Shown here: positions 10,226 through 48,458 of the stretch, one piece after another
Numbering within the stretch: the first letter of the stretch is position 1
Layout of the letters: each line of letters starts with the position of its first letter
Origin: a virus
Lineage: Duplodnaviria > Caudoviricetes
DNA length: 60,657 nt
Virus record (IMG/VR): IMGVR_UViG_3300028895_000276
Coordinates: 1-60,657 of that record
Strand: one strand, 5' to 3'
Notes under the pieces: generated by a model
Database searches by the model: none
What the model was told of the DNA's origin: nothing
What the model saw: only the letters and a program-made list of their open reading frames with translations
Program-made: the position numbers and the translations under genes

Positions 10226-10804
10226 CTAAAGGGAAAACCACCGCAGAGCAACGTAAGACCTCGTCATGGTGTACCGCCCATCATCCACGGACTCCAGAAT
10301 AACGCTCGCCGGTCGCCCAGCGTCAGAGCTTGTCACGCACGCGCAGATGGTCTCCACTCCGTCAGACTCACCGCTCAACTCTACACCTAGCCAGTCCGGG
10401 TAAAAAGCGACCATGTCGGGTAGCCACATTGCCGCGTTGGTCACCTCATACATTCCAGTTATTGCGATAACCTGACCGTAGGCATTGAAGCTGTTCCGGT
10501 CAGCCGTTAGCCGCATACCGCAAGAGGAACGCCAGAATGGGTTCGTGGCTTTCCCGGTGTGTGCCCATTGCATTTCGACCCGAATTCCGCCTGCTTGATG
10601 GTGCTGGTTAAAGACCATGTAGAGCCTTGCCGTAGCCGCTCCGGTCGGGTTGTTGACTTCGACCCAGGTCCCCTCAGCAATTGGATTGCTCCCGCCTTGA
10701 TCCGTAGACACATAGAAGCCGGAAGGGGGAGCGTCACACGGACAACTCACACTACTACCACCGCCGAACAAACCCGCCTGGTATGCCTTCAGTGCCGCTT
10801 TCAT
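10226..10804 (-). CDS. Putative virion decoration protein (shares its N-terminus with the neighbour)
   Basis: Begins MKAALKAYQAGLFGGG, identical to ORF 10801..11610. Confidence 0.6.
   Translation of the reverse strand: MKAALKAYQAGLFGGGSSVSCPCDAPPSGFYVSTDQGGSNPIAEGTWVEVNNPTGAATARLYMVFNQHHQAGGIRVEMQWAHTGKATNPFWRSSCGMRLTADRNSFNAYGQVIAITGMYEVTNAAMWLPDMVAFYPDWLGVELSGESDGVETICACVTSSDAGRPASVILESVDDGRYTMTRSYVALRWFSL
10761..10804. repeat. 44-bp exact direct repeat (second copy 11567-11610) encoding a shared N-terminal module
   Basis: ccgccgaacaaacccgcctggtatgccttcagtgccgctttcat present twice. Confidence 0.93.
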
Positions 10805-11610
10805 AGCGGTCCAGTTATGACCACTTGCCCGTGACCGCTTCTAACGCCGCCGGTAGTCGAGCCGTTTGCCACAGCGACCACCGGGAAGTTTCCCTCGGGT
10901 ATTGACACGACGCCGCCGATGTAGGAAGAGCCACCGCCGCCGTACTGGGCATTGCTCGTGTGACCGCCGAACCATCCACCACCGCCAGCCCCGCGAGCGA
11001 AGTCCGGGTACGAAGGCGGAATTCCCTGACCGTGGCCGAAAGAAAAGCCCGTGTCTTGTCCGCCTGGCCCGCCGCCTGTCTGATCCCCGCGATAGTACCC
11101 GCGTTCCCCAACAAGCCCGCCGCCGTATCCGCCATTGCTATTGAACACGCCAGGTTCAGCCGCGCCACCACCACCACCGCCGCCAACGACTACCCGGTCA
11201 TCGTATCCGGTGCCGCCGATCCGCACGTCGGACCCACCGCCGCCACCGCCGCCTACCCTATCGAACCGATTGATTACCCAGCCGCCGCCATTCCAGCCAC
11301 CGCGGGGGTCAACGGTCGAAACCGGGAAACCGCCCACGAAGACGTAGACGGTAGTGGGCGCCGCCAGTGAGACCTCGCCGGTAGCGTAGCCGCCAAGCCC
11401 GCCGGGCGAGCACTCTGTCGCGCCGTTCGTCCCGACGCCACCCTCAGCACCCCAACACTCGATCTTGAAGGTGCCAGCCGGTAGAAGCTGGGACTGAGAA
11501 GAGCCATCCAGCCCGTTCGTACCGTTGTACGTGAATGTATAGACCACGGACGGCACGCTACCACCGCCGCCGAACAAACCCGCCTGGTATGCCTTCAGTG
11601 CCGCTTTCAT
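10801..11610 (-). CDS. Glycine-rich domain protein (putative fibre/decoration)
   Basis: IECWGAEGG, GGGGSDVRIGG, VVGGGGGG, GGGGWFGG, GGGSSYI motifs of glycine-rich (polyglycine II) domains. Confidence 0.8.
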   Translation of the reverse strand: MKAALKAYQAGLFGGGGSVPSVVYTFTYNGTNGLDGSSQSQLLPAGTFKIECWGAEGGVGTNGATECSPGGLGGYATGEVSLAAPTTVYVFVGGFPVSTVDPRGGWNGGGWVINRFDRVGGGGGGGSDVRIGGTGYDDRVVVGGGGGGGAAEPGVFNSNGGYGGGLVGERGYYRGDQTGGGPGGQDTGFSFGHGQGIPPSYPDFARGAGGGGWFGGHTSNAQYGGGGSSYIGGVVSIPEGNFPVVAVANGSTTGGVRSGHGQVVITGPL

Positions 11611-13010: not shown

Positions 13011-14840
13011 CTAGCCTCTAGCCTTGACAACAGCCTGCACATCGCGCTTGATGATCTTGCCATCCCTGCCCGTACCCGTCACCTCTGCTAGGTCCACGCC
13101 ACTGACCTCTGCGAACGAGGCCGCAGCGGGTGACACGTTGTATTCGACAGGCTCAACGGGAGTCGGCGCCGGCGCAACGACCTTCTCTTTCTGCGGCTCC
13201 TCGCTCGGTGTCGGTTCGGGTGATTTAACCACACTCTCTTCTGGCTGCGGCTGGACTGCCGGCAACGCTGCCCTCTCGAATTCGACCATCCCTGTGAGCC
13301 ATTCGGCGTCCACCGGGTCAGCCCAAAACATCATGTTGCGCTGGTTGCGCCCATACTTGTAGCGTTGGCCAGTTGGACCGTTGATAGTCTGGTTGCCGAT
13401 GTTGGCGCCCAGGTACTTGACCAACACGCTGCCGTCATCTCTAGACGCAGCTAGCGCCGCTACTGCAGGACTGGACCTAGTCCCAGTCTTGCTAACCACC
13501 ACCCGAGGTGTCGTCTTTCGCCTACCACCACAACAAGCCATCGGTAACTCCCCTTTCGAGTAAACAGCACTGTGGATCCGCGCCACCTTGTGCAAGAAAT
13601 AGGACCGAGGACGAGGTACCCGTTGCGTGCGTCCTTGCCCCTCGCGCCTATAGCAATAGTGCGCCTCCCGCAGATGTACTCCACAGTACCCGTGCAACCC
13701 TAGGTTGATGTTGAACTCCCAGTCCTCTCGCCCGTTGTCCATCCTGTTAGAATAGCCACCGGTTTCCAACCATGCAATACGCGGAAACATGATACCCTTA
13801 TGCATACAGTTACGGTCTAACAGTTCATCAAACACGTACTCTGGCATGACCTTACGCTGTCGTGCTCCGTTCCTGCCGTGGTAGACGATGTCGTCGTAGA
13901 CCACGCTGTGTGGGTTTGCTAGCTGCAACTCGTACATGCGCTCTAGCCGCCGAGGTGCCATCCAGTCATCGCCATCCAGGACCGTGCAGAACCTGCCCTT
14001 GGCTATGCTCAGGCCGGCGTTAGCCGCCGAACTCGCGCCACCGTTGCGCTGCCGTACGTAGTGAATCGCCTTCCACGGGTCGTGTAGTCTCTGCCCGACT
14101 ATGGGCGTATTGTCCATGCTGCCGTCGTCCACTATAATGATCTCGGTAGCCTGGAACGTCTGGTCTAGCACCGAAGTCACAGCCTGCTCTAGATAGCGCC
14201 CATAGTTGTAGCACGTTATGATCACGCTGATCTCTGGTGGCGTCTTGATCAACCACCGTCTAGCTGCCCTGTCGCCACCAACATCCTCTATAGCCTGTCT
14301 GATACTGGTGCCGTAGGTCTTCGGTCTCTTATGCTTGAAGTAGCCACGCACGTCCAGCGGCTGCACCCGGAACCCGCTGCGGCACGCCCGCAGTTGATAC
14401 TCGCACGTGGCACCCCATAGTGGATAGAGGTCTCCGTTGAAGCCGCCTATAGCGTTCAGCAGGTCACGACGCACGAACATGAACGTTCCCTGTACATAGC
14501 CGTTAGGCCAGCCAGGGTGTTTCATAACGCCGTCACCGATGATCGCATAGCTCTGTCTCTCTGCTAGCGCACGCTGCCATCCGTTCAGCAACTCGCCGTC
14601 CTGGTTCAGCACCAGCACGTCCGTGTCACACTCAGCGAACCCACGGTTGCAGCCGCCCGAGAAGTAGCCGCGCTCATGCTGCTTGATCACGCGCACGTTA
14701 GGCCATCTGGATACGTCTGGTGGCGCACTGCCGTAATCGTTGATGACCAGGGTGGGGATATCCGCCGGCACGGTGTCCAGAAGAGCCGGCAACGTTGCGT
14801 GACCGTGCCAGAACGGGATGACTACAGTTAGGTTGTCCAA
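13011..14840 (-). CDS. Tandem GT2 glycosyltransferase with a C-terminal E3-binding-like domain
   Basis: Two GT-A units (VVIP/INDYGS/LNQD and SVIITCYN/IVDDGSMD/LDGDD/EDWE); C-terminal SPAA..FAE..GVDL.EV.GTGRDGKI.K.DV; start chosen at TTG after GGAGGG (track start 14888 lies in a hairpin repeat). Confidence 0.88.
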   Translation of the reverse strand: MDNLTVVIPFWHGHATLPALLDTVPADIPTLVINDYGSAPPDVSRWPNVRVIKQHERGYFSGGCNRGFAECDTDVLVLNQDGELLNGWQRALAERQSYAIIGDGVMKHPGWPNGYVQGTFMFVRRDLLNAIGGFNGDLYPLWGATCEYQLRACRSGFRVQPLDVRGYFKHKRPKTYGTSIRQAIEDVGGDRAARRWLIKTPPEISVIITCYNYGRYLEQAVTSVLDQTFQATEIIIVDDGSMDNTPIVGQRLHDPWKAIHYVRQRNGGASSAANAGLSIAKGRFCTVLDGDDWMAPRRLERMYELQLANPHSVVYDDIVYHGRNGARQRKVMPEYVFDELLDRNCMHKGIMFPRIAWLETGGYSNRMDNGREDWEFNINLGLHGYCGVHLREAHYCYRREGQGRTQRVPRPRSYFLHKVARIHSAVYSKGELPMACCGGRRKTTPRVVVSKTGTRSSPAVAALAASRDDGSVLVKYLGANIGNQTINGPTGQRYKYGRNQRNMMFWADPVDAEWLTGMVEFERAALPAVQPQPEESVVKSPEPTPSEEPQKEKVVAPAPTPVEPVEYNVSPAAASFAEVSGVDLAEVTGTGRDGKIIKRDVQAVVKARG

Positions 14841-14858
14841 CAAACCCTCCGCTTTAAC

Positions 14859-14943
14859 CGAAGGTACTTTCCTTGCACGTGACGGCATTCAGTGCTATGC
14901 TGGCCGCTATGTGTGCCGTCCTGTGCAAGGAAAATGCCTCCCG
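14859..14943. repeat. Dispersed intergenic hairpin element, copy B
   Basis: cgaaggtactttccttgcacgtgacggca ... tgccgtcctgtgcaaggaaaatgcctcccg long imperfect inverted repeat. Confidence 0.8.
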
Positions 14944-18216: not shown

Positions 18217-18438
18217 TCAACGCTCCGCGTCTTCTATCGCCAACTTAAACTCATCCCACGGAATGTAGTAGTCTGGATCACCTCGTCTGCGCACCTGCCG
18301 GCAGTTCAACGGCAGTCTGATGTGTACCATAGGACCGGATGCTGTACCTATCACTCGAAACAGCACGGTGCCCCTGTCATCGCCAACGCGGACGAATCCG
18401 TCGTCGTCCCTGACTACTTGATCGAGACTTCGTGCCAT
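18217..18438 (-). CDS. Hypothetical protein
   Basis: 73 aa ORF overlapping the end of the upstream sulfotransferase. Confidence 0.55.
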   Translation of the reverse strand: MARSLDQVVRDDDGFVRVGDDRGTVLFRVIGTASGPMVHIRLPLNCRQVRRRGDPDYYIPWDEFKLAIEDAER

Positions 18439-19253
18439 CGTCTGTAGTCCTGCCAGCAGCCGTGTATAATCATCGTCTCCTGCTCTTTGTTCAAGTCCTC
18501 GCAGTACCGATCGATATGTGCTTGCTCCGTATCCACGATAGACGCCATCTGTACCCGCTCTTCATGCGTGCGCTGCTCTAGCCCTAGAGCCTCGTACAGC
18601 TTGAATATCTGAGCGTCAGGTTCGCCAACTAACCGCTCTAACTCCATGACCGCGTAGTTGTCCTCGTCAACCAGCAGCCTCTGGTCCCACGCCTGCTTCA
18701 TCCGCTCGTGATACCACCACGGGAAGTCGCCATACCTGATCGGTCCCCACTTGCGCGGTACCACCGATGCTGCCACGTCACGCGGGTCACGGATAACGTG
18801 CACGAACTTGGCGTCGGGTAGGGACATCTGCAGGAACGATGCCCAACCCACACACGCCGGCTCCTTGATGACGATGTCCGTCTTGCCTACGTGTGGACAG
18901 ATCATGCCGAATGCCCGCCGCATGAAGAACCGCGCATACTCGTACCTAGTACGGGTGCTGGTAGCTGCCATGTAGTCTAGGTGGCGCCAGGTCTCCGGTG
19001 TGTAGATCTGGTCTGCCCGATCCCACACGCCGAACCGCTTCAGGTTGTTTAGCATCGTGCAGTTGTAGCGTTCCAGCAGATTAGCTATAAACTCCTCTCT
19101 GTCGATGTCGTTCCTGTACGCGTAGTCTGCCAGTCCCCCAGGACCAAACAGCCACTTAGGTTCATAGAACACCGCGAACCTGCCGTCACGTTGCAGGATC
19201 TGCCCCAGCAGCGTCGTGCCACTGCGTCCAGTGCCTCCCACGAAGATAATCAC
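18414..19253 (-). CDS. Sulfotransferase family protein
   Basis: PAPS loop FVGGTGRSGTTLL and 3'-phosphate motif HVIRDPRDVAAS; GTG start after GGAGG. Confidence 0.88.
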   Translation of the reverse strand: MIIFVGGTGRSGTTLLGQILQRDGRFAVFYEPKWLFGPGGLADYAYRNDIDREEFIANLLERYNCTMLNNLKRFGVWDRADQIYTPETWRHLDYMAATSTRTRYEYARFFMRRAFGMICPHVGKTDIVIKEPACVGWASFLQMSLPDAKFVHVIRDPRDVAASVVPRKWGPIRYGDFPWWYHERMKQAWDQRLLVDEDNYAVMELERLVGEPDAQIFKLYEALGLEQRTHEERVQMASIVDTEQAHIDRYCEDLNKEQETMIIHGCWQDYRRWHEVSIK

Positions 19254-19909
19254 TCTCGCCTCCGTACTCGACCCATCATACTCATGCACCTGTCTCGTCT
19301 GCCAATCCAGTCAGCCAGCATAACCACCGCAGAGTAGGTGTCGCCCTGCGTCAGCTCTCTGTAGTGCAACGGCAGATGTGGTCGCTGTTGCAGCTTCAGA
19401 AAGTCGTGGATGCTCTGGTAGTAGTCGGCGTATAGCCTAGCCCACTGCACCTCGCTGTGGCGCCTGTTGTTTCTCCTGATCAGGCTCTCGATGACGCTGG
19501 TCTCGTCCCTGTACGTGATCACATAGCGCGGTATGCAGTGTTCCTCTCTCAGGATCCTGTCCCACGCGAAGCACGTCAGACTGGTCCTAGGATCCTTGAA
19601 GCCCCACTCGTCGTGTACGCTCCTCTCTCGGATAGCCTGCACCATTATATCGTGCAGCAACTCCGTAGCATCAGATAGCGCCGCTATAGACGGTACTTTA
19701 GCCCAGCTACCACCGGCAGTCTTTAGCAGTGCTCTGTTGACGGTGGACATGCCGGTGTCTTCGAAATACCCGTACGGTTGATGGGTATCGCGCCGGCTGC
19801 GGTCCTCCTCGCTGCACATCGGCAACCCAGCGGCATCCAGCATTGAAGCTGCCAGCGAAGTGCCCGTTCTATGCATCCCCAGCACCACATAGACGACCGG
19901 ACGTTTCAT
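19250..19909 (-). CDS. Sulfotransferase family protein
   Basis: VLGMHRTGTS, PYGYFED, WGFKDPRT motifs. Confidence 0.88.
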   Translation of the reverse strand: MKRPVVYVVLGMHRTGTSLAASMLDAAGLPMCSEEDRSRRDTHQPYGYFEDTGMSTVNRALLKTAGGSWAKVPSIAALSDATELLHDIMVQAIRERSVHDEWGFKDPRTSLTCFAWDRILREEHCIPRYVITYRDETSVIESLIRRNNRRHSEVQWARLYADYYQSIHDFLKLQQRPHLPLHYRELTQGDTYSAVVMLADWIGRRDRCMSMMGRVRRRE

Positions 19910-20556
19910 ACGTCGCTCCTCCCACGGTAGTCCAGATAGCACTGACAATTAGTCAGACACACGGTCTCGCCGCTGCCAGGGATAGCCGGTCTACCGCTGC
20001 TAGGCGATATAAACTCTTCGTCGATGCTCTTCCAACCCTCGCCGCTGAGGTCCTCACAGTCTGGGCAGTTCTCCGCAGCAGCGTTCATCACCCATCGATG
20101 CTCGGAATATCCACGCGACTGGCTCGCAGCCAGCAGCCCACGCTCATATGCCTCGCGGCTCGAGTTGGCATACATACGTGCTCTCGCACGGATCTGGCCC
20201 TCTGTAAGATCACCGGCTGCTACCTCGCCGTAGAAGCCGTCTAGATAGCGGTACTGGTCTGCTATGCTGCCGCCGATGCTGCCCCAGTCAGATTGCGTCA
20301 TCTGGTCGGTGCCACCACGCCCCACCAGGTATTGAGCGATGTACTGGTCCTTGATCTCCGTGCGCATCGCTGCGTGCCAGTCATCCGGACTGATGCTGTT
20401 GGTAGAGACCATATCCGCTAGGACGCCCATAACGTCACCGCCGGCAGAGATCGCCGTGTCGATCTCCGTCCGCACCTCAGCGTATGTAACTAGCCTGCCG
20501 GTCTCGATGTTGCGGTACCCGGTCCCTCTGAGCCTTGGATCGTATGTAAACGGCAT
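19906..20556 (-). CDS. Head morphogenesis (MuF-like) minor capsid protein
   Basis: After the portal; C-terminal W...CPDC...PG...C..NCQC.L pattern. Confidence 0.7.
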   Translation of the reverse strand: MPFTYDPRLRGTGYRNIETGRLVTYAEVRTEIDTAISAGGDVMGVLADMVSTNSISPDDWHAAMRTEIKDQYIAQYLVGRGGTDQMTQSDWGSIGGSIADQYRYLDGFYGEVAAGDLTEGQIRARARMYANSSREAYERGLLAASQSRGYSEHRWVMNAAAENCPDCEDLSGEGWKSIDEEFISPSSGRPAIPGSGETVCLTNCQCYLDYRGRSDV

Positions 20557-24794: not shown

Positions 24795-25633
24795 TCCTCC
24801 TGGTCGTATGGCAGCACTCGATACATGGTGTCGCGTAGGCACTCGCCGGTGACTCTCTCAACCACGCCGTCCTTCTCCAGCGTCCTCATGGCGCGTCTGA
24901 CATATGCCTTGTCGAACCCGAACCACTGCTGCAAAGGCCACGACACGTTGACTATGCGGCACGGCTTACCATCACCGATTAGCACAGCCAGCACCAACTC
25001 GGTGAGCGTGTGCACGTAGTTCAACTGTGCGTAGGGATGCTCTAGCGTCTTGCACGGTCTGCGCCACAGCACGTTCCACACCTCGTGTGCCGTCACCGTA
25101 TCGATGTCCTCCCTGCCCCACAGATAGGTCCTGCCGAAGATAGGGTAGTCAACTGCCTCAGGCTGCAGATCAGCGGTATCGAACACGGATGCTAGCAGCG
25201 CTGCACTCATCCGCTTACCGAGGAACCCGTGCCCGCGTAGCACGTCCGCGCCATCGCCACGCACCGGTACCCGGATCTCGTAGTTGCCGCGAGGGTTGGT
25301 GTCTCTGGTAAACAGCTTCTGCATGACCAACGTGTTGATCGCCCGGTGCGCCAGGTTCGATTCGTTAGGCGTGTCGTACTCTAGGGTGTGCTCCGATAGA
25401 CGACTCGTCCCGTTCAGCAACTTGGCTATGGCGTACACGTACGTGCGCCACAGCGCTATGCCCCTCGCCCCACCGCCGAACACCTGGTCGATGCTCCTGG
25501 TGGCTACGGTGGCCAGATCCAGCAACATAGTCTTGCGCATCGCGCTTATTGCCTGTGCCATCGCTACGTTCACTCCTGTCGTGTCTGCTTCCAGTCTCAC
25601 CCGTACATCATCAAGACCCATCGCTGTCGCCAT
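24791..25633 (-). CDS. Hypothetical protein with winged-helix-like segments
   Basis: HRAINTLVMQKLF and VRRAMRTLEKDGVVER resemble wHTH recognition helices. Confidence 0.55.
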   Translation of the reverse strand: MATAMGLDDVRVRLEADTTGVNVAMAQAISAMRKTMLLDLATVATRSIDQVFGGGARGIALWRTYVYAIAKLLNGTSRLSEHTLEYDTPNESNLAHRAINTLVMQKLFTRDTNPRGNYEIRVPVRGDGADVLRGHGFLGKRMSAALLASVFDTADLQPEAVDYPIFGRTYLWGREDIDTVTAHEVWNVLWRRPCKTLEHPYAQLNYVHTLTELVLAVLIGDGKPCRIVNVSWPLQQWFGFDKAYVRRAMRTLEKDGVVERVTGECLRDTMYRVLPYDQED

Positions 25634-27260
25634 ATCTCCCTCCGTGTGCTTTGATCGCCTGCGACATAGTCTCGTGCACGTGCCGGCGTGCCTCGCTATC
25701 GCGCTTCCCTGACACGCCGAACCAGTCCGACAAGACCGTTATCACCTCGTCCACGTCCGCAGACCCTACCCAGCGCCACCGGGTGTACCGACCATTCCCA
25801 GCACACTCCACGGCTCCGGTCTCACGCAGACGCGCTAGATACCTCTTAAACGTCGCCCTACCGACCACCTCCTCACCCATCGTAGCTAGCAACTCCGATA
25901 CGCTGCCCCACTCGCCGGCTTGCGATAGCATCGCCGTCAGCACTCGGATGCCAGCCTTCCCCATCCCAGTGCTATAGACCAGATCGCTACGCTGCAGCTC
26001 TCCCAGGATATTGCGATTAAATGAACCCGTCCGTGGATGAGCCGAGAACGCACCGTCTCTTTCGGCTCTTTCGGAATCATCTTTTTCTGTTAAGTCTTTG
26101 AAAGAAAATGATTCTGCGTGAGCCGAAAGAAGGGTATCGACGGACAGCCTATACTCCCTGGACGTAACCATAGAACCTGCCTTGCTGGTCTCCAGGATGC
26201 CGGCGTCTAGTAGTCGCTGCACTGCGGACCATGCGCCCTTGTAGCTGCTGCCTATGTTCTCAGCTATCTGCCTAAGAGACTGACTGCGGCACAAACCGTT
26301 ACCGCTGAGACGATAGTCAGTAATGTCACCGGTCAGCAGCGCGATGAATGCAGCCTGCGAGTTGCGCCTCGCCACCGCACCCCAGCCGCCGAGGTGTGCC
26401 CAATCGATCAGGGACGCAGCAGCAGTGATCTCGTCTAGCCTTTCAGCTATTTCAACTCCGTTATGTTCGAGGAACCCGGCTGCGCCCTCGTACGTGCGCA
26501 TCAACCACGCATCCGCATCCGCAGCCGGCAGCGCCGCGTAGTGCCCATATCCGCCGTCTTGCCGCAGCAGCCTGCCAATATCGTCCAGCGGAACGCCGGT
26601 ACTGCAGAGACTGCAGACTATGCTGGCATCCGAAGCACTCGCGCCACCGCTGGTGGTCAGCCTGTATGCCGGATCCCCACGCAGCATCGTGTCTGCCCGT
26701 AGGCTTATGTACCAGGATGGTGCCGGCTGCAGACCAGGGAACACCCGCTGCACGTCGGCAAACTCCAGCATCGGGACATTGCGATAGTCAAGCATCGAGG
26801 ACCACATGTACTCTCTGCCCTCTGGATGCAAGCTAGGCGGTAGCAGCGCCGCCACCCCTCGCCCGAGGAACTCGAGGTCTTGCACGTCTGCCGAGTTGGA
26901 CGTAGCCGGCGCCGTGTCCAAACGCAGCATCGCTTTCACGCCGCCCGCGTGTGCACCCGTGCTTCCACTCACTATCTCTGGCAGCACGTCGAACCCGAGG
27001 TGGCACAACCGGCGCCATAGCTCGTCGCTAGCGGATGGGGAATCGGCATCGAACACCAACAGGTTGCCGCTGGCAGACCCGCACGCCACAGCCACATTGC
27101 TGTCGTCCGCGAAGACAGCCGGCAGCAGTGACGCCGGCATCGCTCTACCTAGCAGAGGTCGCGTGTGCACGCTGGGTCGCTTAGCACCCTTGAGGAACGG
27201 GATGGGACTGTAGCCGGCAGCTAACAGATCAGCCGCCGCTCGAAGACTGCTCATAGGCAT
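25611..27260 (-). CDS. Bifunctional primase-polymerase (Prim-Pol/AEP) replication protein with C-terminal wHTH regions
   Basis: GYSPIP..KRP, NVAVACG..SGNLLVFDAD, LLPPSLHPEG.EY.W motifs; ATG at 27260 after AGGGGAG. Confidence 0.85.
   Translation of the reverse strand: MPMSSLRAAADLLAAGYSPIPFLKGAKRPSVHTRPLLGRAMPASLLPAVFADDSNVAVACGSASGNLLVFDADSPSASDELWRRLCHLGFDVLPEIVSGSTGAHAGGVKAMLRLDTAPATSNSADVQDLEFLGRGVAALLPPSLHPEGREYMWSSMLDYRNVPMLEFADVQRVFPGLQPAPSWYISLRADTMLRGDPAYRLTTSGGASASDASIVCSLCSTGVPLDDIGRLLRQDGGYGHYAALPAADADAWLMRTYEGAAGFLEHNGVEIAERLDEITAAASLIDWAHLGGWGAVARRNSQAAFIALLTGDITDYRLSGNGLCRSQSLRQIAENIGSSYKGAWSAVQRLLDAGILETSKAGSMVTSREYRLSVDTLLSAHAESFSFKDLTEKDDSERAERDGAFSAHPRTGSFNRNILGELQRSDLVYSTGMGKAGIRVLTAMLSQAGEWGSVSELLATMGEEVVGRATFKRYLARLRETGAVECAGNGRYTRWRWVGSADVDEVITVLSDWFGVSGKRDSEARRHVHETMSQAIKAHGGRYGDSDGS
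26058..26130. other. AT-rich inverted repeat within the Prim-Pol gene (candidate origin)
   Basis: tctttcggctc/gagccgaaaga outer arms, gaatcat/atgattc inner arms, AT-rich core. Confidence 0.5.
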
Positions 27261-27291
27261 CTCCCCTGGTACGCGTGGGTGTGGTCCTTTT

Positions 27292-27320
27292 ATTAAACCA
27301 CACGATGGCGCCGAGGTCAA
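27292..27320 (-). promoter_or_regulatory. Leftward promoter for Prim-Pol
   Basis: Minus strand TTGACC-17 bp-TTTAAT with TGTGG. Confidence 0.8.
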
Positions 27321-27364
27321 GTACCTGACAAACGACAAGGATACCTATCATATGCCGCACATGA

Positions 27365-32797: not shown

Positions 32798-32989
32798 ATG
32801 AATACAGACTACGACAACATGAGTGATGAGCAGTTCCTAGCAGCCGCCGTGAACTCCGAGGATCGCACCGCGTTTCTGGAAGCCCTCACCCCGGAGCAGC
32901 TTGATCGGATGACGGCGCTGATCGCCAAGAGATTCGCGAGTTTCAACAAGCTGGTATCCGCTATCGTGGCGCCGCTACTGGAAGAGTGA
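32798..32989 (+). CDS. Small hypothetical protein
   Basis: RBS GAGGTGG; coupled to the downstream gene. Confidence 0.6.
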   Translation: MNTDYDNMSDEQFLAAAVNSEDRTAFLEALTPEQLDRMTALIAKRFASFNKLVSAIVAPLLEE

Positions 32990-33870
32990 TGGCACGCATC
33001 CAGTACGAGACACACAAGTTCAAGCAGAGCACCCTAGCTACCATCGCACAGGCTAACAGCATTATCACAGAGTACCACCAGCAAGACCTCACCCTGACCC
33101 TACGGCAACTCTACTACCAGCTAGTGGCGCGTGGTCTGCTGGACAACAAGCAGAAGGAGTATAAGCGCCTGAGCGCCGTACTGGTCAAGGCACGCCGTGC
33201 CGGTCTGGTTGACTGGAACGCCATCGTAGACCGCACACGTGCTACGTACTCGCGCACGCGATGGGACAACCCGGCACAGATCCTGGTCGCCGCCGTGGAC
33301 AGCTACCACGAGGACTGGTGGACACAGCAGCCCTACCGTGTCGAGGTATGGATAGAGAAGGACGCGCTAGCCGGCGTCATTGCGCAGCCGTGCCACGACT
33401 ACGACGCCCCCTACTTCCCTTGTCGAGGATACGCGAGCGACAGCGAGATGTGGGTATCAGCGCAGCGTCTGCTGCGGCATCAGAAAGCTGGGCAGATGCC
33501 TATCATCCTGCACATGGGTGACCACGATCCTAGCGGCATCGACATGACACGCGACATCGAAGAGCGGCTGTGGATGTTCGGCGTCAAAGCTGATGTGAAG
33601 CGCATCGCCCTCAACATGGACCAGGTTCGACAGTACAACCCGCCACCCAACCCAGCCAAGGTATCTGATAGCCGCTATGCTACCTACGTCAGACATTACG
33701 GACATCAGAGCTGGGAGCTGGACGCCCTCGACCCGGCAACGCTGCGGACACTAATCGAGCAGGAGATATCCAGCTACGTCGAAGGCGACAGGTGGGTCGA
33801 TGCCAAGGAGCACGAAGAGAGCAACCGAGACCTCATTCGCCAAGCAGCCATCGACATACAGGAGGAGTAA
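32986..33870 (+). CDS. Topoisomerase VI-A/Spo11-like TOPRIM protein
   Basis: LTLRQLYYQL, EVWIEKDAL, GDHDPSGIDM, WELDALDP motifs. Confidence 0.8.
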   Translation: MMARIQYETHKFKQSTLATIAQANSIITEYHQQDLTLTLRQLYYQLVARGLLDNKQKEYKRLSAVLVKARRAGLVDWNAIVDRTRATYSRTRWDNPAQILVAAVDSYHEDWWTQQPYRVEVWIEKDALAGVIAQPCHDYDAPYFPCRGYASDSEMWVSAQRLLRHQKAGQMPIILHMGDHDPSGIDMTRDIEERLWMFGVKADVKRIALNMDQVRQYNPPPNPAKVSDSRYATYVRHYGHQSWELDALDPATLRTLIEQEISSYVEGDRWVDAKEHEESNRDLIRQAAIDIQEE

Positions 33871-41988: not shown

Positions 41989-42013
41989 AGTGCACAAGCA
42001 AGGAGGGACGACC

Positions 42014-43825
42014 ATGAGCTACTACGCCTTAAGCTTCGAACCCGGTGACGTAGAAGAGCCTCTGACAGCAGAGGACATCGCCGCGATAGCTGCATCAGAT
42101 ATGGTGGCTATCGACACGGAGACCACCGGGCTGGACTACGACAGCAGGATCCTTGGTATTAGCGTAGCGTGGCGCGTGCCCGGTGCTATGCACAGTGCCT
42201 ACCTGAACCTTAGTCACCCGCTGAGCCTGTTTTCAGCACGCATCGACGACGACATCGTCGCGGACGTGATGAGAGCGGTCTTTGAACCGGACCGACCGGT
42301 GGCTCTGCTAAACGCCGTCTTCGACATAGAGAAGCTGTCACGCTGGGGTCACCTGGAGCTGCCTATCGAATACCCGTACCTCTACGACGCACAGATCCTG
42401 GCGCGTTGGCTGATGTCCTTCGAGAAGTTCCAAGGCGTCAGCATGGAGAAGCTAGTTAGCCGGCGCCTAGGCGGCATGCCGCCGTGGATGAGCAGCATGA
42501 AGAAGATGAGGTCCAAGCTAGGGACGCTACCAGCGGAGAAGGTCAGCCCGTACGCCCGCGCCGACGCCGAGTTCACCTTGATGCTGGTCGAGGATCTGAT
42601 GCGCGAGGGTAGACTGCTCTACGACGACGAAGTCCTAGACACGATGCTGGAACGCGAGAGCCGGTTTTTGTGGTTACTCACCCGGATCCAGCGACACGGT
42701 ATCCTGCTGGACCTCGAAGAGATCCACGAGCGGTCCGTACGAATGACCGCAGACATGCAAGAGCTGCGAGCGTTCCTGAAGCAGAACGGCATTCACAACC
42801 CGGACAGCCGCGATAGCGTTCTCAAGGGTCTACCTATGCACATCGTGGCAGGACTACCGCAGACCGACAACGGCAACTACAAGATCGACAGTGCTGCCCT
42901 AGCCGGAAAAGGACCGGTGGCCGAGGCAGTATTGCGCTATCGCAGTTTAGGCAAGGCCGTTGGTACGTGGCTGGACGGTTTCCGCAGCAAGGTAGCCAGC
43001 GATGGCCGGCTGCATCCGCGATTCCGCGCTGCCGGCACGGTCTCTGGCCGGCTGTCCTGCAACGAGCCGAATTTGCAGGCTGTCCCACTAGCGGACCGTG
43101 GCGCCGCGTTCGGTAGCCTGATGGGTATATTCAAGGCAGCACCTGGATTCTCGCTGTTGGCTGCAGACTACGAGCAAGCCGAGCTTCGGACGTGCGCCGC
43201 GTATGCTAAGTCTACCGCTATGGCCAACGCATTCAAGAACGGAGAGGATATTCACTCGTTTGCTGCTAGTCTGATGTGGCCGGACTCGGAGATCAACTAC
43301 GAGCTACGGCAGCTAGGCAAACGTTGCAACTACTGCACCACCTACGGTGGCGGGTACCGTGCGCTGGCCGAGAACACTGGCATACCTGAGAGCGAAGCCA
43401 AGATCGTCATCAACACGTACCGTCGTGCCTTCCCTGAACTGGTAGCAGCACAGAATCGCGCCGGTGACGTATGGGAGCAGCGAGGGTACATCACGATGTG
43501 GAATGGCCGCCGGCACTACAAGTCACCTAACGACGGCAGCTACAAAGCCTTCAACCAGGTCATGCAGGGTGACGTAGCTGAGCTGGTCAAGGACGCTATG
43601 CTGAGTGTGGACGCCCGGTTCGCAGAGATGGGTGTTGGCAACATCGTGCTACAGATCCACGACAGCATCGAAGTCGAGGTACAGACCGACGCCGTCGAGG
43701 ACGTGAAAGCGATGATGCGTAAGGAGATGGTAGCCGCCGCACCGCTGCACATCATGAACCGCACTGAGCCGCCTATCACCATGGACGTTGGGTTCGAGAA
43801 CTGGTACCCCGAGGAGGACGAATGA
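42014..43825 (+). CDS. polA: Family A DNA polymerase with 3'-5' exonuclease (candidate DpoZ)
   Basis: Exo I DTETTG, Exo II NAVFD, Exo III YARAD; SGRLS..PNLQ; motif A DYEQAELR; motif B KRCNYCTTYG; motif C IHDS. Confidence 0.95.
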   Translation: MSYYALSFEPGDVEEPLTAEDIAAIAASDMVAIDTETTGLDYDSRILGISVAWRVPGAMHSAYLNLSHPLSLFSARIDDDIVADVMRAVFEPDRPVALLNAVFDIEKLSRWGHLELPIEYPYLYDAQILARWLMSFEKFQGVSMEKLVSRRLGGMPPWMSSMKKMRSKLGTLPAEKVSPYARADAEFTLMLVEDLMREGRLLYDDEVLDTMLERESRFLWLLTRIQRHGILLDLEEIHERSVRMTADMQELRAFLKQNGIHNPDSRDSVLKGLPMHIVAGLPQTDNGNYKIDSAALAGKGPVAEAVLRYRSLGKAVGTWLDGFRSKVASDGRLHPRFRAAGTVSGRLSCNEPNLQAVPLADRGAAFGSLMGIFKAAPGFSLLAADYEQAELRTCAAYAKSTAMANAFKNGEDIHSFAASLMWPDSEINYELRQLGKRCNYCTTYGGGYRALAENTGIPESEAKIVINTYRRAFPELVAAQNRAGDVWEQRGYITMWNGRRHYKSPNDGSYKAFNQVMQGDVAELVKDAMLSVDARFAEMGVGNIVLQIHDSIEVEVQTDAVEDVKAMMRKEMVAAAPLHIMNRTEPPITMDVGFENWYPEEDE

Positions 43826-44448
43826 CCGAAGAGAAAGAGCCGTATCTGGACCACCCCAGCGCCACAGAGCAAGACGCTACCTGGAGGAACACATCCAGCG
43901 TGGATTGGCTGTCGCCACCCGAGGTGCTAGCAGCCGCCCGCAACGTCATGGGCAAGTTCGATCTCGATCCAGCCAGCAGCGAGAAGGCTAACCAGTTCGT
44001 GCGCGCCGAGGTATTCTTCGGACAGGACAACGGCACGGACGGTCTGCAGATGCCCTGGCGTGGCAGGGTCTGGTTGAATCCACCATACGGTAAGTACAAA
44101 CCGGGTGTCAGCCGTGCCGGCATGTGGGGCAAGAAGCTACTCGAGGAGTACATCGCAGGCAAGGTAATAGAAGCGTGCCTGTACGTCAAGACCGCCGTTG
44201 GCTATAAGTGGTTCGACAAACTACTGCAGCAGGCCGATGCCGTCTGTTTCCTGTGGGGTCTGCCCGAGCACCTGAACCTCGTAGACAACCGCTACGGGAA
44301 GTGCAAGATGGGCAGAGCAGTGATGTACTACGGGTCGCACCCTGCACAGTTCGTGCAGTGCTTTAGGCACCTAGGCTATTTCCGGTTCGACGCCGCCGAC
44401 CGCACGGATTACCACGTCCTACGCGCTGTTGGTATGGCCAAATTCTAA
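43822..44448 (+). CDS. Phage DNA N6-adenine (amino) methyltransferase
   Basis: W.SPP, FDLDPAS, DGL..PW.GRVWLNPPYG motifs of the phage Dam-like family. Confidence 0.9.
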   Translation: MTEEKEPYLDHPSATEQDATWRNTSSVDWLSPPEVLAAARNVMGKFDLDPASSEKANQFVRAEVFFGQDNGTDGLQMPWRGRVWLNPPYGKYKPGVSRAGMWGKKLLEEYIAGKVIEACLYVKTAVGYKWFDKLLQQADAVCFLWGLPEHLNLVDNRYGKCKMGRAVMYYGSHPAQFVQCFRHLGYFRFDAADRTDYHVLRAVGMAKF

Positions 44449-44462
44449 CGGAAGGAGACACC

Positions 44463-44786
44463 ATGAAGGACTCGTTGCAAGCGAAGGTCGGATCCGTGCT
44501 GTTCATGTTGGCGATGATTGGGTTGACCATCGGCGCCGCTGCCTACTTCGGCAATCTGCTGATCGAGGAGATAGTCAGCAACCGCGCCGAGACCATCCTG
44601 GCGAACGGTGAGCTGGCTATCGATGAAGCCATCGCCCGCAGCATCGACGCCGGCACAGCCGCTTCGATGGCAGACACCAGGCTAGCCACCGCTATGTCCT
44701 GGTACCCGTTCGTCATCGGAGTAACTGCCGTGTTCGCTGTCGTTTTCTACGTCCTACTGACAGCGCCGGCACGGAAGAACAGTTAA
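44463..44786 (+). CDS. Two-TM membrane protein
   Basis: N- and C-terminal hydrophobic helices; RBS AAGGAG. Confidence 0.7.
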   Translation: MKDSLQAKVGSVLFMLAMIGLTIGAAAYFGNLLIEEIVSNRAETILANGELAIDEAIARSIDAGTAASMADTRLATAMSWYPFVIGVTAVFAVVFYVLLTAPARKNS

Positions 44787-44788
44787 TA

Positions 44789-44845
44789 GTCATGTGTAGC
44801 TAGTGACACCTGACACTAGCACGGAGCAGCAAACTGGTGTTTAAT
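44789..44845 (+). promoter_or_regulatory. Operator-type promoter of the purZ operon
   Basis: Half site GTCAT 44789, GTGACACCTGACAC 44803, TTTAAT 44840; no TTGACA. Confidence 0.65.
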
Positions 44846-44876
44846 AGGGTCACGTCACAACCCACAGGAGGAAGCG

Positions 44877-45974
44877 ATGTTACAGCAGGTATGGAGTATC
44901 GTTGGCGGTCAGGCCGGCAGCGAAGGCAAAGGCAAGGCAGCCGGGTATCTGGCAGCCGCTCTCAAGCCCGAGGTGGTAGCGTGCGCGTTCACCGCCAACG
45001 CTGGCCACACAGCGTATGACCGGGACGGCAACAAGATCGTCGTGCACACCATCCCGATTGGCGCGTTCTTCGGCGCAAAGCTGGTCGTCATCGGACCGGG
45101 TGCTGCCATCCGCACGTGGCGCCTGATCGAGGAGATGGAAGCGTTGCACCGCGTGAACCCGGACTGCAAGGTGCTGCTAGACGAGAACGTGGTACTCATC
45201 TCACCGGAGCAGGTAGCGTGGGAAGCCGAGACGATGAAGAAGATCTCGTCCACGTGCCAAGGCGTGGGACGCGCACAGGCCGACAGGCTACTGCGGCAGG
45301 GTCGCGCAGACACCGCTAGCAACCACGCACCCACCTTCATCGAAGGTCTCACAGTAGGCAGCGCCGCCGAGGTGTTGCAGGTGCGCTACGATTCCGGTGA
45401 CAAGATCCAGATCGAAGGTTGTCAAGGTATCGACATCGACCTACTACACGGGATCCAGTACCCGTACTGCACCAGCCGCAGCATCACCGCCGCAGCCGTG
45501 GCTAACGACTGTGGATTCCCTGCAACCCGCGTGGACAGCGTGGTCTCGGTGTTCCGCACCTACCCTATCCGCGTGGGCAACGTGGTTGAGGAAGGCAAGC
45601 AGGTTGGATGGAGCGGACCTATCCCACGGGACAGCGACGAGTTGACGTGGGACGAGATGACCAAGCTGGCCGGCAGCCCCGAGAGACTAGAGGAGCGAAC
45701 CACCGTCACCAAGAAGGTACGCCGCATCTTCACGTGGAGCCGGCAGCGCTACATCGTCTCGCAGTGGCTGAACAACGCCACGCACGCGTGGGTTAACTTC
45801 GGTGACTACCTCGACTGGAACATCCACGGCGTGTGCGGCAACACCACAGAGCTGCATAGCATCAGCAAGACCGCTGCGCAGTGGGTTGACACCGAGATCG
45901 GCATGTCACACCTGCTGGCACTCGGTACCGGTCCTGGCATGGATGACGTGATCGCGCATCCTAGACTGAGGTAG
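44877..45974 (+). CDS. purZ: N6-succino-2-amino-dAMP synthetase (PurZ/PurZ0 type, PurA paralogue)
   Basis: GGQAGSEGKGK (Ser for the PurA Asp of GDEGKGK), NAGHT, EGCQG, YPYCTSR, RTYPIRVG, ERTTVTKKVRR, LGTGP; 365 aa. Confidence 0.88.
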   Translation: MLQQVWSIVGGQAGSEGKGKAAGYLAAALKPEVVACAFTANAGHTAYDRDGNKIVVHTIPIGAFFGAKLVVIGPGAAIRTWRLIEEMEALHRVNPDCKVLLDENVVLISPEQVAWEAETMKKISSTCQGVGRAQADRLLRQGRADTASNHAPTFIEGLTVGSAAEVLQVRYDSGDKIQIEGCQGIDIDLLHGIQYPYCTSRSITAAAVANDCGFPATRVDSVVSVFRTYPIRVGNVVEEGKQVGWSGPIPRDSDELTWDEMTKLAGSPERLEERTTVTKKVRRIFTWSRQRYIVSQWLNNATHAWVNFGDYLDWNIHGVCGNTTELHSISKTAAQWVDTEIGMSHLLALGTGPGMDDVIAHPRLR

Positions 45975-45976
45975 CG

Positions 45977-47116
45977 ATGATCGAGCGCTACAACAACGCA
46001 GACATCGCTGGTATCTGGAGCACCACGAGCCAGTACCAGCGATGGCTGGACATCGAGAGGACTTGGATACGCTGCTTACTGGACATCGATCCACCGATGG
46101 TACCAGGAGAGGTGGTTATTCACGACATCCGCGTCAATACGTACGAGATCGAGCACTTCGAGACCGTGACACACCACGATGTGCGAGCATTCCTGATGTG
46201 GCTAGAGCGTGAGCTGCCGTCGCCGCTACGCAGATACCTACACCTAGGACTAACAAGCTCTGATGTCGTAGACACCGGCACAGCCCTAGCAGTGCGCGGT
46301 AGCGTGCGCGTGTTGGATGATATCTACAGCCGGCTGATACACTACCTGTACAAGAGTGCAGCCAGCGCGCCGCCGCTGCTACCATCCTACTCACACGGGC
46401 AGCCGGCACGCAGCATCTCGAGCGCCCACTTCTACCGGCGTCTAGAGATACCCATAGGTAGAGCGTTCTCAGAGGTGAGCGTATCGCAGCTGCCCATAGC
46501 CATCGGTGGTCCTACTGGCGAATGGTCAAGCTTACCACCAGGAGCCACGTCCACGCTGCTGCAAGCACGCTCATCTTTCAACGTCATCATGTCCACCCGC
46601 TACGGCGTAAAGAACGTAGCGCCGAGATCGCAGGCTCTGGACCGCTCTTACTACACGAAGCTAGCACAGGCACTCAGCAGGATGTCCAACGCACTGTCAC
46701 AGGCTGCCCTGCACCTGAGGTTCTACCACCTACGCGGTATGCTGCGGATAGGCGGTACAGCCTCATCATCAGCGATGCCGAACAAGAGCAACCCAGTACG
46801 CCTAGAGAAGGTGTGCGGCATGGCACGCGTAGCGCGAGGGTACGCTCTGATGGCCGGCTGCAACCAGGACACGTGGGAGCTACGCGACATCAGCAACTCG
46901 TCAGTAGAAAGGGTCTGGATGCCGGATCTGTTCCACACGGTGGCACACCAGGTTAGCACGCTCTGCAACGTGATCGCCAAGATGCAGTGGGTCGAGCCGG
47001 CAATCGACGCTGAGCTAGCAGCCTTCCCCAATGACCCATTCGGAAAGATGGTGGCGTTGCAAGCCACCGGGATGCACTACAACAAAGCATGGCGCACAGC
47101 CAAGGAGGACACATGA
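45977..47116 (+). CDS. purB: Adenylosuccinate lyase homologue
   Basis: HHDV, HLGLTSSDVVDT, SHGQPA, SSAMPNKSNP..E, RDISNSSVER; 379 aa, short C-terminus. Confidence 0.92.
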   Translation: MIERYNNADIAGIWSTTSQYQRWLDIERTWIRCLLDIDPPMVPGEVVIHDIRVNTYEIEHFETVTHHDVRAFLMWLERELPSPLRRYLHLGLTSSDVVDTGTALAVRGSVRVLDDIYSRLIHYLYKSAASAPPLLPSYSHGQPARSISSAHFYRRLEIPIGRAFSEVSVSQLPIAIGGPTGEWSSLPPGATSTLLQARSSFNVIMSTRYGVKNVAPRSQALDRSYYTKLAQALSRMSNALSQAALHLRFYHLRGMLRIGGTASSSAMPNKSNPVRLEKVCGMARVARGYALMAGCNQDTWELRDISNSSVERVWMPDLFHTVAHQVSTLCNVIAKMQWVEPAIDAELAAFPNDPFGKMVALQATGMHYNKAWRTAKEDT

Positions 47117-47601
47117 GCACTGACTACAGCCGGCTGGGAGTGGTACCTATTGCCGACGTCACACAGGACCACGTGCAAGGATACGCCCGCGAGATGACAC
47201 CCAGCGCCGGCATCGTTCCGCTACACGACATCGAGCGCGTCATCGCGAGTATGTTTCTCAAGGTCAGGGACGGCGCTATGGACCGGATGCCCGGTACCCT
47301 GTCATTGTACGATGACGCGATGGCTATAGCGCCTCGCGTGCCCGGTATCGCGGACAAGCAACACGCTTTGGCCGAGGTACGCGCACGCATCAAAGAGCGA
47401 GGCGAGCAGTACGGGTGTGCCGTCCTCAACCTGATGGGTACCTGGTACACTAGCTCAAACGTGGCTGCCAAGCTACTGCGCGTGTGGGATCACTGGACAC
47501 AGCACAAGATCCTACTGACCGACGAAGTGCTAGACATCGCTGGGTACTGCATCTTGAACATGGCGATACTCACCCACAGCATGGCCGAGGTCGGACAATG
47601 A
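47113..47601 (+). CDS. All-alpha nucleotide pyrophosphohydrolase-like protein (candidate MazZ analogue)
   Basis: KERGEQYG ... KLLR ... DEVLDIAGY pattern of nucleotide-modification-associated MazG-like domains; operonic with purZ. Confidence 0.6.
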   Translation: MSTDYSRLGVVPIADVTQDHVQGYAREMTPSAGIVPLHDIERVIASMFLKVRDGAMDRMPGTLSLYDDAMAIAPRVPGIADKQHALAEVRARIKERGEQYGCAVLNLMGTWYTSSNVAAKLLRVWDHWTQHKILLTDEVLDIAGYCILNMAILTHSMAEVGQ

Positions 47602-48458
47602 ACAGCATCTACCTAGCCGGTCCTCTGGACTACGCCAACCTAGGCGACAAGGCAGCGTGGCGCGAACGGTTCGCAGCTCTGCTGGGTCAGCACTCTCCCA
47701 TGTCCGCACAGCTACCGCTGCTCTACGATCCTAGCAAGCCTTTCACCAACCCGCTGTCCAGCCCGGACACGCTGGTTTCCGTGAACATGGCCGCACTGGA
47801 AGCAAGCTCTATCGTGATAGCACTGGTTATCTCGACCGAGCCGTCGTGGGGCACACCCATCGAGATATGGGAAGCACGCCGGCAAGGCAAGCCCGTGCTG
47901 TTGTGGGTACCGAACGAGGACTGCCCGCCCTACCTCATCGCAGACACTGAACGGTATCTGACGCTGAACGCCATCGCCGCTAGGACCGCTGAGATGTTGT
48001 ACCAGGACGCAGATACCGACCTCGTCACCACGTCTCAAGACCTACTGTACGAGAACGGTGGTATCCAGTTCCCCAAGATCTCTGGTGATGTAGGGTATGA
48101 CGTCGAGGTGATGTCACAGACCAGGCTACTGCCGCACGCCATCACCAAGGTGCCATTGGGATTCAACGGTGAGCCACTACGCGTGAAGACACCGCGTGGT
48201 ACGTGGTTCTCGATGTTCCCACGCAGCAGCATGGTCGACAAGGGTCTAATGGTCGTGAAGACCGTCTGCGACGAAGGGTACACCGGTGATCTGTTCATGT
48301 TCGTGTACAACACCACCAACAAGCTGCTGATGCTGCTACCCGGACAGAGGATCGGGCAGATCGTGCTGTTCGATAGCGTCACGCCGCAGATGCGCCACGT
48401 GTCTACACTACCGCGCACCGCACGTGGCAGTAACGGTTTCGGCAGCACAGGGACGTGA
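47598..48458 (+). CDS. Fusion of a nucleoside 2-deoxyribosyltransferase-like domain and a trimeric dUTPase-like domain
   Basis: N-terminal IYLAGP and SWGTPIE..EA...GKPV; C-terminal GDVGYD, PRSS, CDEGYTG, GQRIGQ, RGSNGFGSTG. Confidence 0.88.
   Translation: MNSIYLAGPLDYANLGDKAAWRERFAALLGQHSPMSAQLPLLYDPSKPFTNPLSSPDTLVSVNMAALEASSIVIALVISTEPSWGTPIEIWEARRQGKPVLLWVPNEDCPPYLIADTERYLTLNAIAARTAEMLYQDADTDLVTTSQDLLYENGGIQFPKISGDVGYDVEVMSQTRLLPHAITKVPLGFNGEPLRVKTPRGTWFSMFPRSSMVDKGLMVVKTVCDEGYTGDLFMFVYNTTNKLLMLLPGQRIGQIVLFDSVTPQMRHVSTLPRTARGSNGFGSTGT

Follow-up and report, generated by a model that had tools for sequence, protein, structure and literature searches.

The window analysed here is the complete 60,657-bp genome of an uncultured virus (IMG/VR record IMGVR_UViG_3300028895_000276), which carries direct terminal repeats and was assigned to the siphoviruses on the basis of its tape-measure and minor tail genes. 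At its centre of interest is the open reading frame (ORF) at 45977-47116, encoding a PurB-like lyase, a relative of adenylosuccinate lyase, which lies directly behind purZ, the gene for the synthetase of 2-aminoadenine (Z) nucleotide synthesis. Both genes belong to a module with the order family A polymerase, Dam-like methyltransferase, 107-amino-acid ORF, PurZ, PurB-like lyase, 162-amino-acid ORF and NDT-dUTPase fusion (Table 1). The purZ stop codon (TAG, 45972-45974) is followed by two bases (cg) and then by the ATG of the lyase at 45977, which agrees with the 2-nt spacing given in an earlier, sequence-only reading of this DNA. Further downstream, the lyase stop (TGA, 47114-47116) overlaps the ATG (47113) of the 162-amino-acid ORF in the tetranucleotide ATGA, and the TGA of this ORF overlaps the ATG (47598) of the 286-amino-acid fusion in the same way. 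No terminator-like sites were found inside the module by a simple consensus scan. As judged from these overlaps, the lyase is translationally coupled with the two genes that follow, the second of which is the DmtZ-DutZ-like fusion.

The family of the lyase was established with profile and structure collections. Pfam matched Lyase_1 (PF00206, the aspartase/fumarase superfamily) to residues 51-288 (E 1.3e-13, 51.5 bits against a cutoff of 27), and the best family was NCBIfam TIGR00928 purB (E 3.2e-51, 174.5 bits, the runner-up reaching 65 bits), whose profile was covered at positions 1-383 of 436. An ADSL_C domain was not found in the lyase by Pfam. Up to E 1e-5, the PDB gave 18 matching sequences, each of them an adenylosuccinate lyase and that of S. 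aureus (2x75, E 1e-30) the best, and the alignments end at lyase residue 338-343 of 379. The ESM Atlas model of the exact sequence (pTM 0.87, pLDDT 0.87, monomer) resembles a cluster of bacterial adenylosuccinate lyases (TM 0.89) and a cluster of 388-amino-acid lyases, 92% of them viral (TM 0.89). By these matches, the ORF encodes a phage protein with a shortened lid that belongs, within the aspartase/fumarase superfamily, to the PurB branch.

The lyase motifs that the sequence-only reading had described as intact are all present in the 379-amino-acid translation, namely THHDV (65-69), HLGLTSSD (89-96), SHGQ (139-142), SSAMPNKSNP (264-273) and RDISNS (303-308). A residue comparison with 78 cellular PurBs, 29 PurZ-linked viral lyases and 9 PurA-linked viral lyases revealed a largely preserved catalytic core. 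Residues R4, Y5, H67, H89, H140, Q219, S264, S265, K270, N272, E277, R303, S308 and R312 are identical to those of 2x75 and conserved in at least 76 of the 78 cellular enzymes, and D68, T93, S94, S95, D96, R223, R248 and D304 are likewise kept and conserved in at least 74 of them; most of the kept residues are invariant in alignment A4. Compared with the consensus GSSxxPxKxN of the SS loop given in PMC13411527, the lyase reads S-S-S-A-M-P-N-K-S-N-P at 263-273, where both serines, the proline, the lysine and the asparagine are kept and the leading glycine is replaced by serine.

The protein is nevertheless far from any cellular PurB. Among 1.84 billion representatives, phmmer found 3033 matches at E ≤ 0.001 and 54 at E ≤ 1e-30, the query itself included. 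The closest other relatives have 376 amino acids (P0241, 41% identity) and 392 amino acids (P0242, 36%), and 34 of the 53 best non-self relatives are shorter than 405 amino acids. The cellular comparison set consisted of the 80 most similar PurBs, from many phyla, of a genome collection of 185,579 species; the highest identity to these was 32%. Their median length is 435 amino acids, with 78 of the 80 measuring at least 410, and the remaining two (213 and 332 amino acids) are probably fragments cut at contig ends. A FastTree phylogeny of 223 rows was poorly resolved (four long-branch joins, 75 of 213 forks open) and was used for the immediate clade of the window lyase only: the protein pairs with P0241 (support 98) inside a clade of 27 rows (support 82), none of them cellular. 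The earlier description of the lyase as divergent and short is borne out by these data, and the near identity to a host PurB that would have spoken for a recent passenger gene was not observed.

It is accordingly very improbable that the gene is a chance copy of a host purB, acquired recently and of no functional use to the phage. Such copies could be suspected from lyase-matching records in phage collections that look cellular ('Microcystis phage MaAM05', with metG, mtaB and glgX) and from gp76 of phage Hiyaa, a near-canonical PurB (335 bits to TIGR00928; E 4e-76 to the PurB of T. maritima). The window lyase, in contrast, shares at most 32% identity with the 80 cellular PurBs and at most 41% with any of the 1.84 billion representatives, belongs to a clade without cellular members, and occurs in a synteny with PurZ that is kept in relatives whose PurZ is 46-60% identical. 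Because of the low cellular identity and the cell-free clade, the lyase is, as far as its sequence can tell, not a recent passenger from a host.

The partner of the lyase is a PurZ of the serine type. NF038379 matched it with 220.8 bits (E 2.2e-65), below the cutoff of 300, and its P-loop reads GQAGSEGKG, in which serine replaces the aspartate of PurA. In a PurA/PurZ tree of 87 rows (IQ-TREE quick, LG+G4, rooted with 8 cellular PurA as outgroup and built without archaeal sequences), all Ser-type sequences formed one clade (support 100, 70 rows), with the window PurZ inside. There it occupies its own 10-row subclade (support 100), which lies outside the PurZ0 clade (support 100) of Ghobes, the Arthrobacter Korravirus phage Beethoven and Hiyaa, and on the side (support 89) of S-2L, SH-Ab 15497 and Bacillus phage BpsS-140. 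The phage of the window probably replaces adenine with 2-aminoadenine in its DNA. Lyase-bearing loci are spread over several PurZ subclades and differ in gene order.

The pairing of the two genes was surveyed from both sides in IMG/VR and metagenome loci, where all counts refer to the best 80 loci per scan. The survey of purZ neighbourhoods for purB that the sequence-only reading had proposed did reveal the pairing. Among the IMG/VR loci retrieved with an alignment of PurZ0-type sequences, 34 of 80 contain a PurB-like gene, and in 17 of these 34 PurZ0 is closely followed, on its own strand, by a lyase of 362-364 amino acids; one of the 17 (L338) shows polymerase, PurZ0 and lyase, followed by a 294-amino-acid ORF in the region of a DmtZ-DutZ match. 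Retrieval of 80 IMG/VR loci with an alignment of short lyases gave a PurA or PurZ homologue within 10 kb of the PurB-like gene in 37, 28 of them Ser-type and 9 Asp-type. The genes are immediate neighbours in 11 of the 28 Ser-type pairs (8 divergent, 3 with purB followed by purZ).

Relatives of the window's own PurZ point in the same direction. On the contig L083, whose PurZ is 60% identical, a Dam-like gene is followed by PurZ, and 1 nt past the PurZ stop a frame opens with 29 residues, starting with MINRY, that resemble the N-terminus of the lyase before the contig ends. Two further linkages are indirect: the longest contig has 12009 nt both for P0125, related to PurZ, and for P0242, related to the lyase, and a contig of 39541 nt is listed for both P0127 and P0026. 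Scans of viral contigs with single proteins as queries (the window lyase, P0002 and P0242) gave no usable locus.

In the cultured-phage collection, the window PurZ has 204 matching records and the lyase 23. The two lists have Gordonia (6 records) and Streptomyces (5 records) in common, with overlap at the level of the single record checked for Ghobes and Hiyaa only. GenBank annotates Ghobes gp36 as 'adenylosuccinate lyase' and lists a 'PurB-like adenylosuccinate lyase' for Hiyaa, Galactica, Keanu, Spocter, Sapo, Frizzle and Archimedes. The novelty that the sequence-only reading had seen in the gene was therefore overrated, since PurB-like genes were already annotated in the cultured phages Ghobes (gp36) and Hiyaa (gp76) and are frequent in uncultured PurZ phages. 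For each of ten other PurZ-linked phage lyases, PurB was by far the best model; eight of them score below the TIGR00928 cutoff. The scores range from 335-337 bits (Hiyaa gp76 and L209) to 152-175 bits (the window lyase, P0241, P0242 and Ghobes gp36), and such a spread, with some lyases near-canonical and others strongly divergent, suggests that the gene was acquired repeatedly or that its lineages have long been separate. PDB entry 8jbd was considered as a phage PurB and rejected; it is not the best match of the Hiyaa (E 2e-66) or the Ghobes (E 1e-23) lyase. The record of 'Microcystis phage MaAM05' (L165, MW495066.1, 190706-199839) shows a purB region with metG, mtaB, nikR and glgX and has a cellular look. 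This record and unannotated Listeria, Staphylococcus and Enterococcus 'phage' contigs that match the lyase may represent host DNA rather than phage genes.

From the gene, its family and catalytic core, its coupling and its recurrent pairing with PurZ, we infer a catalytic function, a substrate and a benefit. It is likely, and the best reading of the context, that the lyase cleaves the product of PurZ to dZMP and fumarate, which is the second step of 2-aminoadenine nucleotide synthesis. In the proposed pathway, the DutZ-like domain of the fusion would supply dGMP and remove dATP, as is known for its homologues, and PurZ would condense dGMP with aspartate to N6-succino-2-amino-2'-deoxyadenylate. 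The lyase would then remove fumarate by beta-elimination and release dZMP. In this superfamily, the proton is taken up by an SS-loop serine, the leaving group usually receives its proton from a histidine, and each active site is built where three subunits of a tetramer meet (PMC13411527). An SS-loop serine of the phage enzyme (S264/S265 in SSAMPNKSNP) would be the base, and H140 of SHGQ would protonate the leaving group. Host kinases would convert dZMP to dZTP, and the family A polymerase of the phage would insert it. Since the lyase would be co-translated with purZ and with the pool-shaping DmtZ-DutZ-like enzyme, synthetase and lyase would be produced together, early and regardless of the level of host PurB. 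The phage might benefit from a higher flux, or from no longer depending on the amount of host enzyme or on its being there at all. The sequence-only reading had gone further and proposed that the gene removes dependence on the host; this would apply to the lyase step but not beyond it, given that Pfam detected no nucleotide kinase among the scanned ORFs of the window.

Several observations weigh against this role, and a first group concerns the lyase itself. Its score does not reach the TIGR00928 equivalog cutoff of 326.2 bits, and only about 36 residues follow domain 2, compared with about 90 in T. maritima PurB. At 13 positions that are invariant in 78 of 78 cellular PurBs the residue has changed: G137S, R138Y, E145R, G150A, E191T, E257R, G263S, H269N (within the SS loop), L299T, N346E, S356G, R368Y and Y372W. 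Domain 3 of human ADSL forms a lid that closes on the substrate, and its Arg396, His400 and Arg404 order the catalytic loop; substitutions of Arg396 sharply lower activity, and this residue is needed for activity and cooperativity (PMC6301967, passages on the human enzyme). Tyr368 of the lyase stands in a column that is arginine in 78 of 78 cellular PurBs and that presumably corresponds to human Arg396.

These features would also fit an altered or lost lyase function, in which the protein acts on another succinylated nucleotide or serves as a non-catalytic partner or regulator of PurZ. Besides the low score, the truncated domain 3 and the 13 substitutions with the loss of the SS-loop histidine and of the lid arginine, such a function would be in keeping with a superfamily that holds other reactions, as seen in weaker matches that include muconate cycloisomerase, nitrosuccinate lyase and XcbD. 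Against it, both SS-loop serines, the following lysine, asparagine and glutamate, the three histidines and the N-terminal Arg-Tyr are kept, and each of the 10 PurZ-linked phage lyases compared matches PurB far better than any other model. The derived features are moreover shared with relatives. P0241 aligns with the lyase from end to end (40% identity, 8 gapped positions) and has in common with it the short C-terminus, an insert of about 11 residues near 197-207, Y138, Y368 and W372; P0242 carries the same derived residues. As these features are kept in relatives at 36-41% identity, they point to selection and maintenance of a subfamily rather than to decay. An altered or lost function is therefore regarded as distinctly unlikely.

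A second group of counter-arguments concerns distribution and literature. Viral PurB-like genes stand beside an Asp-type PurA in 9 of the 80 loci and have no PurA or PurZ in the fetched flanks in 43 of 80, so the family is not exclusive to Z synthesis. No lyase was found within 8 kb in any of 80 IMG/VR loci with the PurZ pattern GQ[AVW]GS[ET]GK, a pattern that excludes the GQF and GQY types of PurZ0, nor in any of 80 metagenome PurZ loci, most of which lie on short contigs; neither result is taken as a sign of a general rarity of the lyase. The Arthrobacter isolate phages in the PurZ0 sample are also without a lyase. Published passages assign the lyase step of Z synthesis to host or bacterial PurB (bioRxiv 10.1101/2025.10.22.683976; PMC12783734), and a figure legend lets host enzymes complete the pathway (PMC8342488). 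According to these passages, which agree with what the sequence-only reading had stated as established, host PurB is sufficient for the characterised Z-phages. Finally, the residue comparison found no substitution common to all PurZ-linked lyases, and therefore nothing specifically indicates a 2-amino or deoxy substrate.

The same data can be read as a general auxiliary gene for purine supply, the lyase acting on adenylosuccinate and SAICAR and raising the AMP and IMP of the host; activity on the Z intermediate would be compatible with this as well. The viral loci with PurA or without either partner, the largely kept substrate-binding and catalytic residues of cellular PurB and the missing Z-specific signature among PurZ-linked lyases are in its favour. 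We consider it unlikely, as the lyase is coupled to PurZ and to the DmtZ-DutZ-like gene, Pfam scans of the window revealed no other gene of purine biosynthesis, pairs with a Ser-type PurZ are found in several clades and gene orders, and the loss of invariant residues and of most of the lid fits a narrowed rather than a dual task. Cleavage of the PurZ product thus remains the preferred role. The proposal of the sequence-only reading, a dedicated lyase with deoxy and 2-amino specificity, holds up in its first part, the second-step role; the specificity finds no counterpart in a signature shared by the PurZ-linked enzymes.

A bolder proposal is that the short, lid-truncated PurB-like lyases form a phage-specific class dedicated to N6-succino-2-amino-dAMP, with a synthetase/lyase pair that is perhaps older than PurZ itself. 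This is conceivable and at present rather doubtful. If true, the pathways to 2-aminoadenine DNA would have a fourth component that is widespread and has been overlooked. An Asp-type PurA beside a PurB-like gene, which is often short (366-390 amino acids), was seen in the IMG/VR loci L185, L214, L198, L199 and L238, and also in L167, L184, L206 and L220. Five viral Asp-type PurA genes located beside PurB form the sister group (support 96) of all Ser-type PurZ. PurZ may thus have arisen within a phage-borne purA-purB pair; alternatively, the loci with Asp-type PurA and PurB may represent a separate phage pathway to AMP or dAMP.

The remaining genes of the module are collected in Table 1.

Table 1. 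Coordinates of the predicted Z module in the window, with the matches on which each assignment rests
Feature	Coordinates	Strand	Evidence or remark
Family A DNA polymerase with 3'-5' exonuclease, candidate Z-incorporating polymerase, head of the module	41990..43825	+	Pfam DNA_pol_A 5.4e-61, DNA_pol_A_exo1 1.9e-11; phrog_17 1.3e-102
Dam-like DNA N6-adenine methyltransferase	43822..44448	+	Pfam PF05869 Dam 4.6e-11; phrog_111 1.5e-22
107-amino-acid ORF between methyltransferase and purZ	44463..44786	+	no assigned family
PurZ (succino-amino-deoxyadenylate synthase), 365 amino acids	44877..45974	+	NF038379 2.2e-65; phrog_1211 4.9e-59
GAGG Shine-Dalgarno-like motif within the 3' end of purZ	45968..45971	+	5 nt before the lyase ATG
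PurB-like lyase, 379 amino acids	45977..47116	+	Pfam Lyase_1; TIGR00928 purB
162-amino-acid ORF, AAGGAGG upstream	47113..47601	+	sequence read; no Pfam or PHROG match
DmtZ-DutZ-like fusion, 286 amino acids	47598..48458	+	Pfam Nuc_deoxyrib_tr 8.9e-09 (residues 4-108); dUTPase 1e-18 (residues 159-285)

Blastn of 41990-48458 against the phage collection gave no match, and the polymerase reaches about 27% identity to its best counterpart in any cultured phage. The 107-amino-acid ORF had no PHROG match at E ≤ 0.001 and no Pfam match at E ≤ 0.01; when matches up to E 1 were admitted, the sole one was the sub-threshold DUF1403 (E 0.04, 13.8 bits, cutoff 31.8). This ORF separates the Dam-like methyltransferase from PurZ in the window, while in L083 the methyltransferase gene (480-1073) directly abuts PurZ. 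The target of the methyltransferase (43822-44448) is puzzling in a genome that is expected to be without adenine. For the 162-amino-acid ORF, the Atlas model is confident (pTM 0.83), and as a lead only, the nearest feature cluster has DUF1599 in 52% of its members (score 0.89); no similarity to Ghobes gp51 was found. The ORF could encode the missing pyrophosphohydrolase-type pool enzyme of the module. Neither an HD-type DatZ nor a MazG-type MazZ was detected by Pfam and PHROGs among the ORFs scanned.

Outside the module, several features of the genome were recorded. A 624-amino-acid family 2 glycosyltransferase with a C-terminal E3_binding domain (13011-14888, minus strand) and two adjacent sulfotransferase-family genes (18414-19948, minus strand) lie among the structural genes, which is unusual for a siphovirus. 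A 268-amino-acid protein (10801-11610, minus strand) matches nearly the whole profile of the ALK/LTK glycine-rich domain (PF12810, E 6.8e-31). Besides the zinc-ribbon primase, the DnaB-like helicase and the family A polymerase on the plus strand, there is a 574-amino-acid PrimPol-domain protein on the minus strand (25611-27338). A 294-amino-acid protein (32986-33870, plus strand) matches phrog_6247 ('DNA topoisomerase') over its full length (E 3.8e-109), with no Pfam match at E ≤ 0.001. The AT skew is strongly positive (0.12 to 0.27) at 26000-50000, the early and replication region of the plus strand, and near zero or negative elsewhere. A tRNA scan of the window found no tRNA gene, and a close cultured relative was not found either.

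In the published picture of Z synthesis, as far as the cited passages present it, the phage provides the synthetase, the pool-clearing enzymes and the polymerase, and the lyase step is left to host PurB. More broadly, lyases of this kind proved common among uncultured Z-phages, in contrast to the literature searched, which leaves the step to the host. If phage lyases carry out this step, the phage-encoded pathway would be more complete than usually drawn, and this would apply to a large share of uncultured Z-phages, namely to 34 of the 80 loci of PurZ0 type and, in the clade of the window PurZ, to three or more additional members. The lyase would perhaps be useful in a Z pathway transplanted into hosts with poor or absent PurB, would aid the recognition of Z-phages in metagenomes and would offer a natural minimal PurB, with most of the lid missing, for studying closure over the substrate. 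Should it be an ordinary PurB of broad specificity, it would be a routine auxiliary gene.

With cellular PurB (2x75; T. maritima 1c3u/1c3c; B. subtilis 1f1o) the window lyase shares the superfamily fold, the best-matching family, the three histidine motifs, the SS loop and the N-terminal Arg-Tyr. It differs from the cellular enzymes in its length (379 amino acids against a median of 435), the lack of ADSL_C, its location in a phage genome and its coupling to PurZ. The phages S-2L, PhiVC8 (Vibrio) and SH-Ab 15497 (Acinetobacter) have in common with the window a Ser-type PurZ at the centre of a nucleotide-pool module beside replication genes. Their clusters contain MazZ and DatZ and no lyase, and the 23 records that match the lyase include none of these phages, whereas the window combines the lyase with a DmtZ-DutZ-like fusion. 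The 286-amino-acid protein has the NDT and dUTPase architecture described for the fusion of Arthrobacter phage Wayne, and accessory genes of the DmtZ-DutZ type are enriched in PurZ0 genomes (Poubanne et al. 2026, PMC12884076, main text). In tblastn, Hiyaa gp69 and the fusions of Arthrobacter phages (Korravirus, PurZ0 clade) match the window fusion along 99-100% of its length with 27-30% identity. By this comparison, the window joins a non-PurZ0 synthetase with a PurZ0-type accessory gene, so that accessory sets and synthetase clades appear mixed.

The closest cultured parallels are Ghobes gp36 (377 amino acids) and Hiyaa gp76 (457 amino acids), PurB-family lyases from phages whose genomes also carry a Ser-type PurZ and genes of the DutZ/DmtZ type. 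The main text of PMC12884076, a study of Ghobes itself, contains no occurrence of PurB or of a lyase. A phage lyase for Z synthesis is likewise not described in the full texts searched, a search that had the 2021 Science papers, Tong 2023, supplements and figures outside its range. Both lyases are 27-30% identical to that of the window. Ghobes gp36 is likewise short and divergent, whereas Hiyaa gp76 is near-canonical, unlike the window lyase, and the window PurZ lies outside the PurZ0 clade that holds the synthetases of both phages. The lyase gene of Ghobes is located 7.4 kb from PurZ0 on the other strand and that of Hiyaa 4.4 kb downstream, compared with 2 nt downstream in the window. The window gene is a new member, and an unusually divergent one, of a kind of phage gene that is annotated but uncharacterised, and it stands closer to PurZ than the cultured examples.

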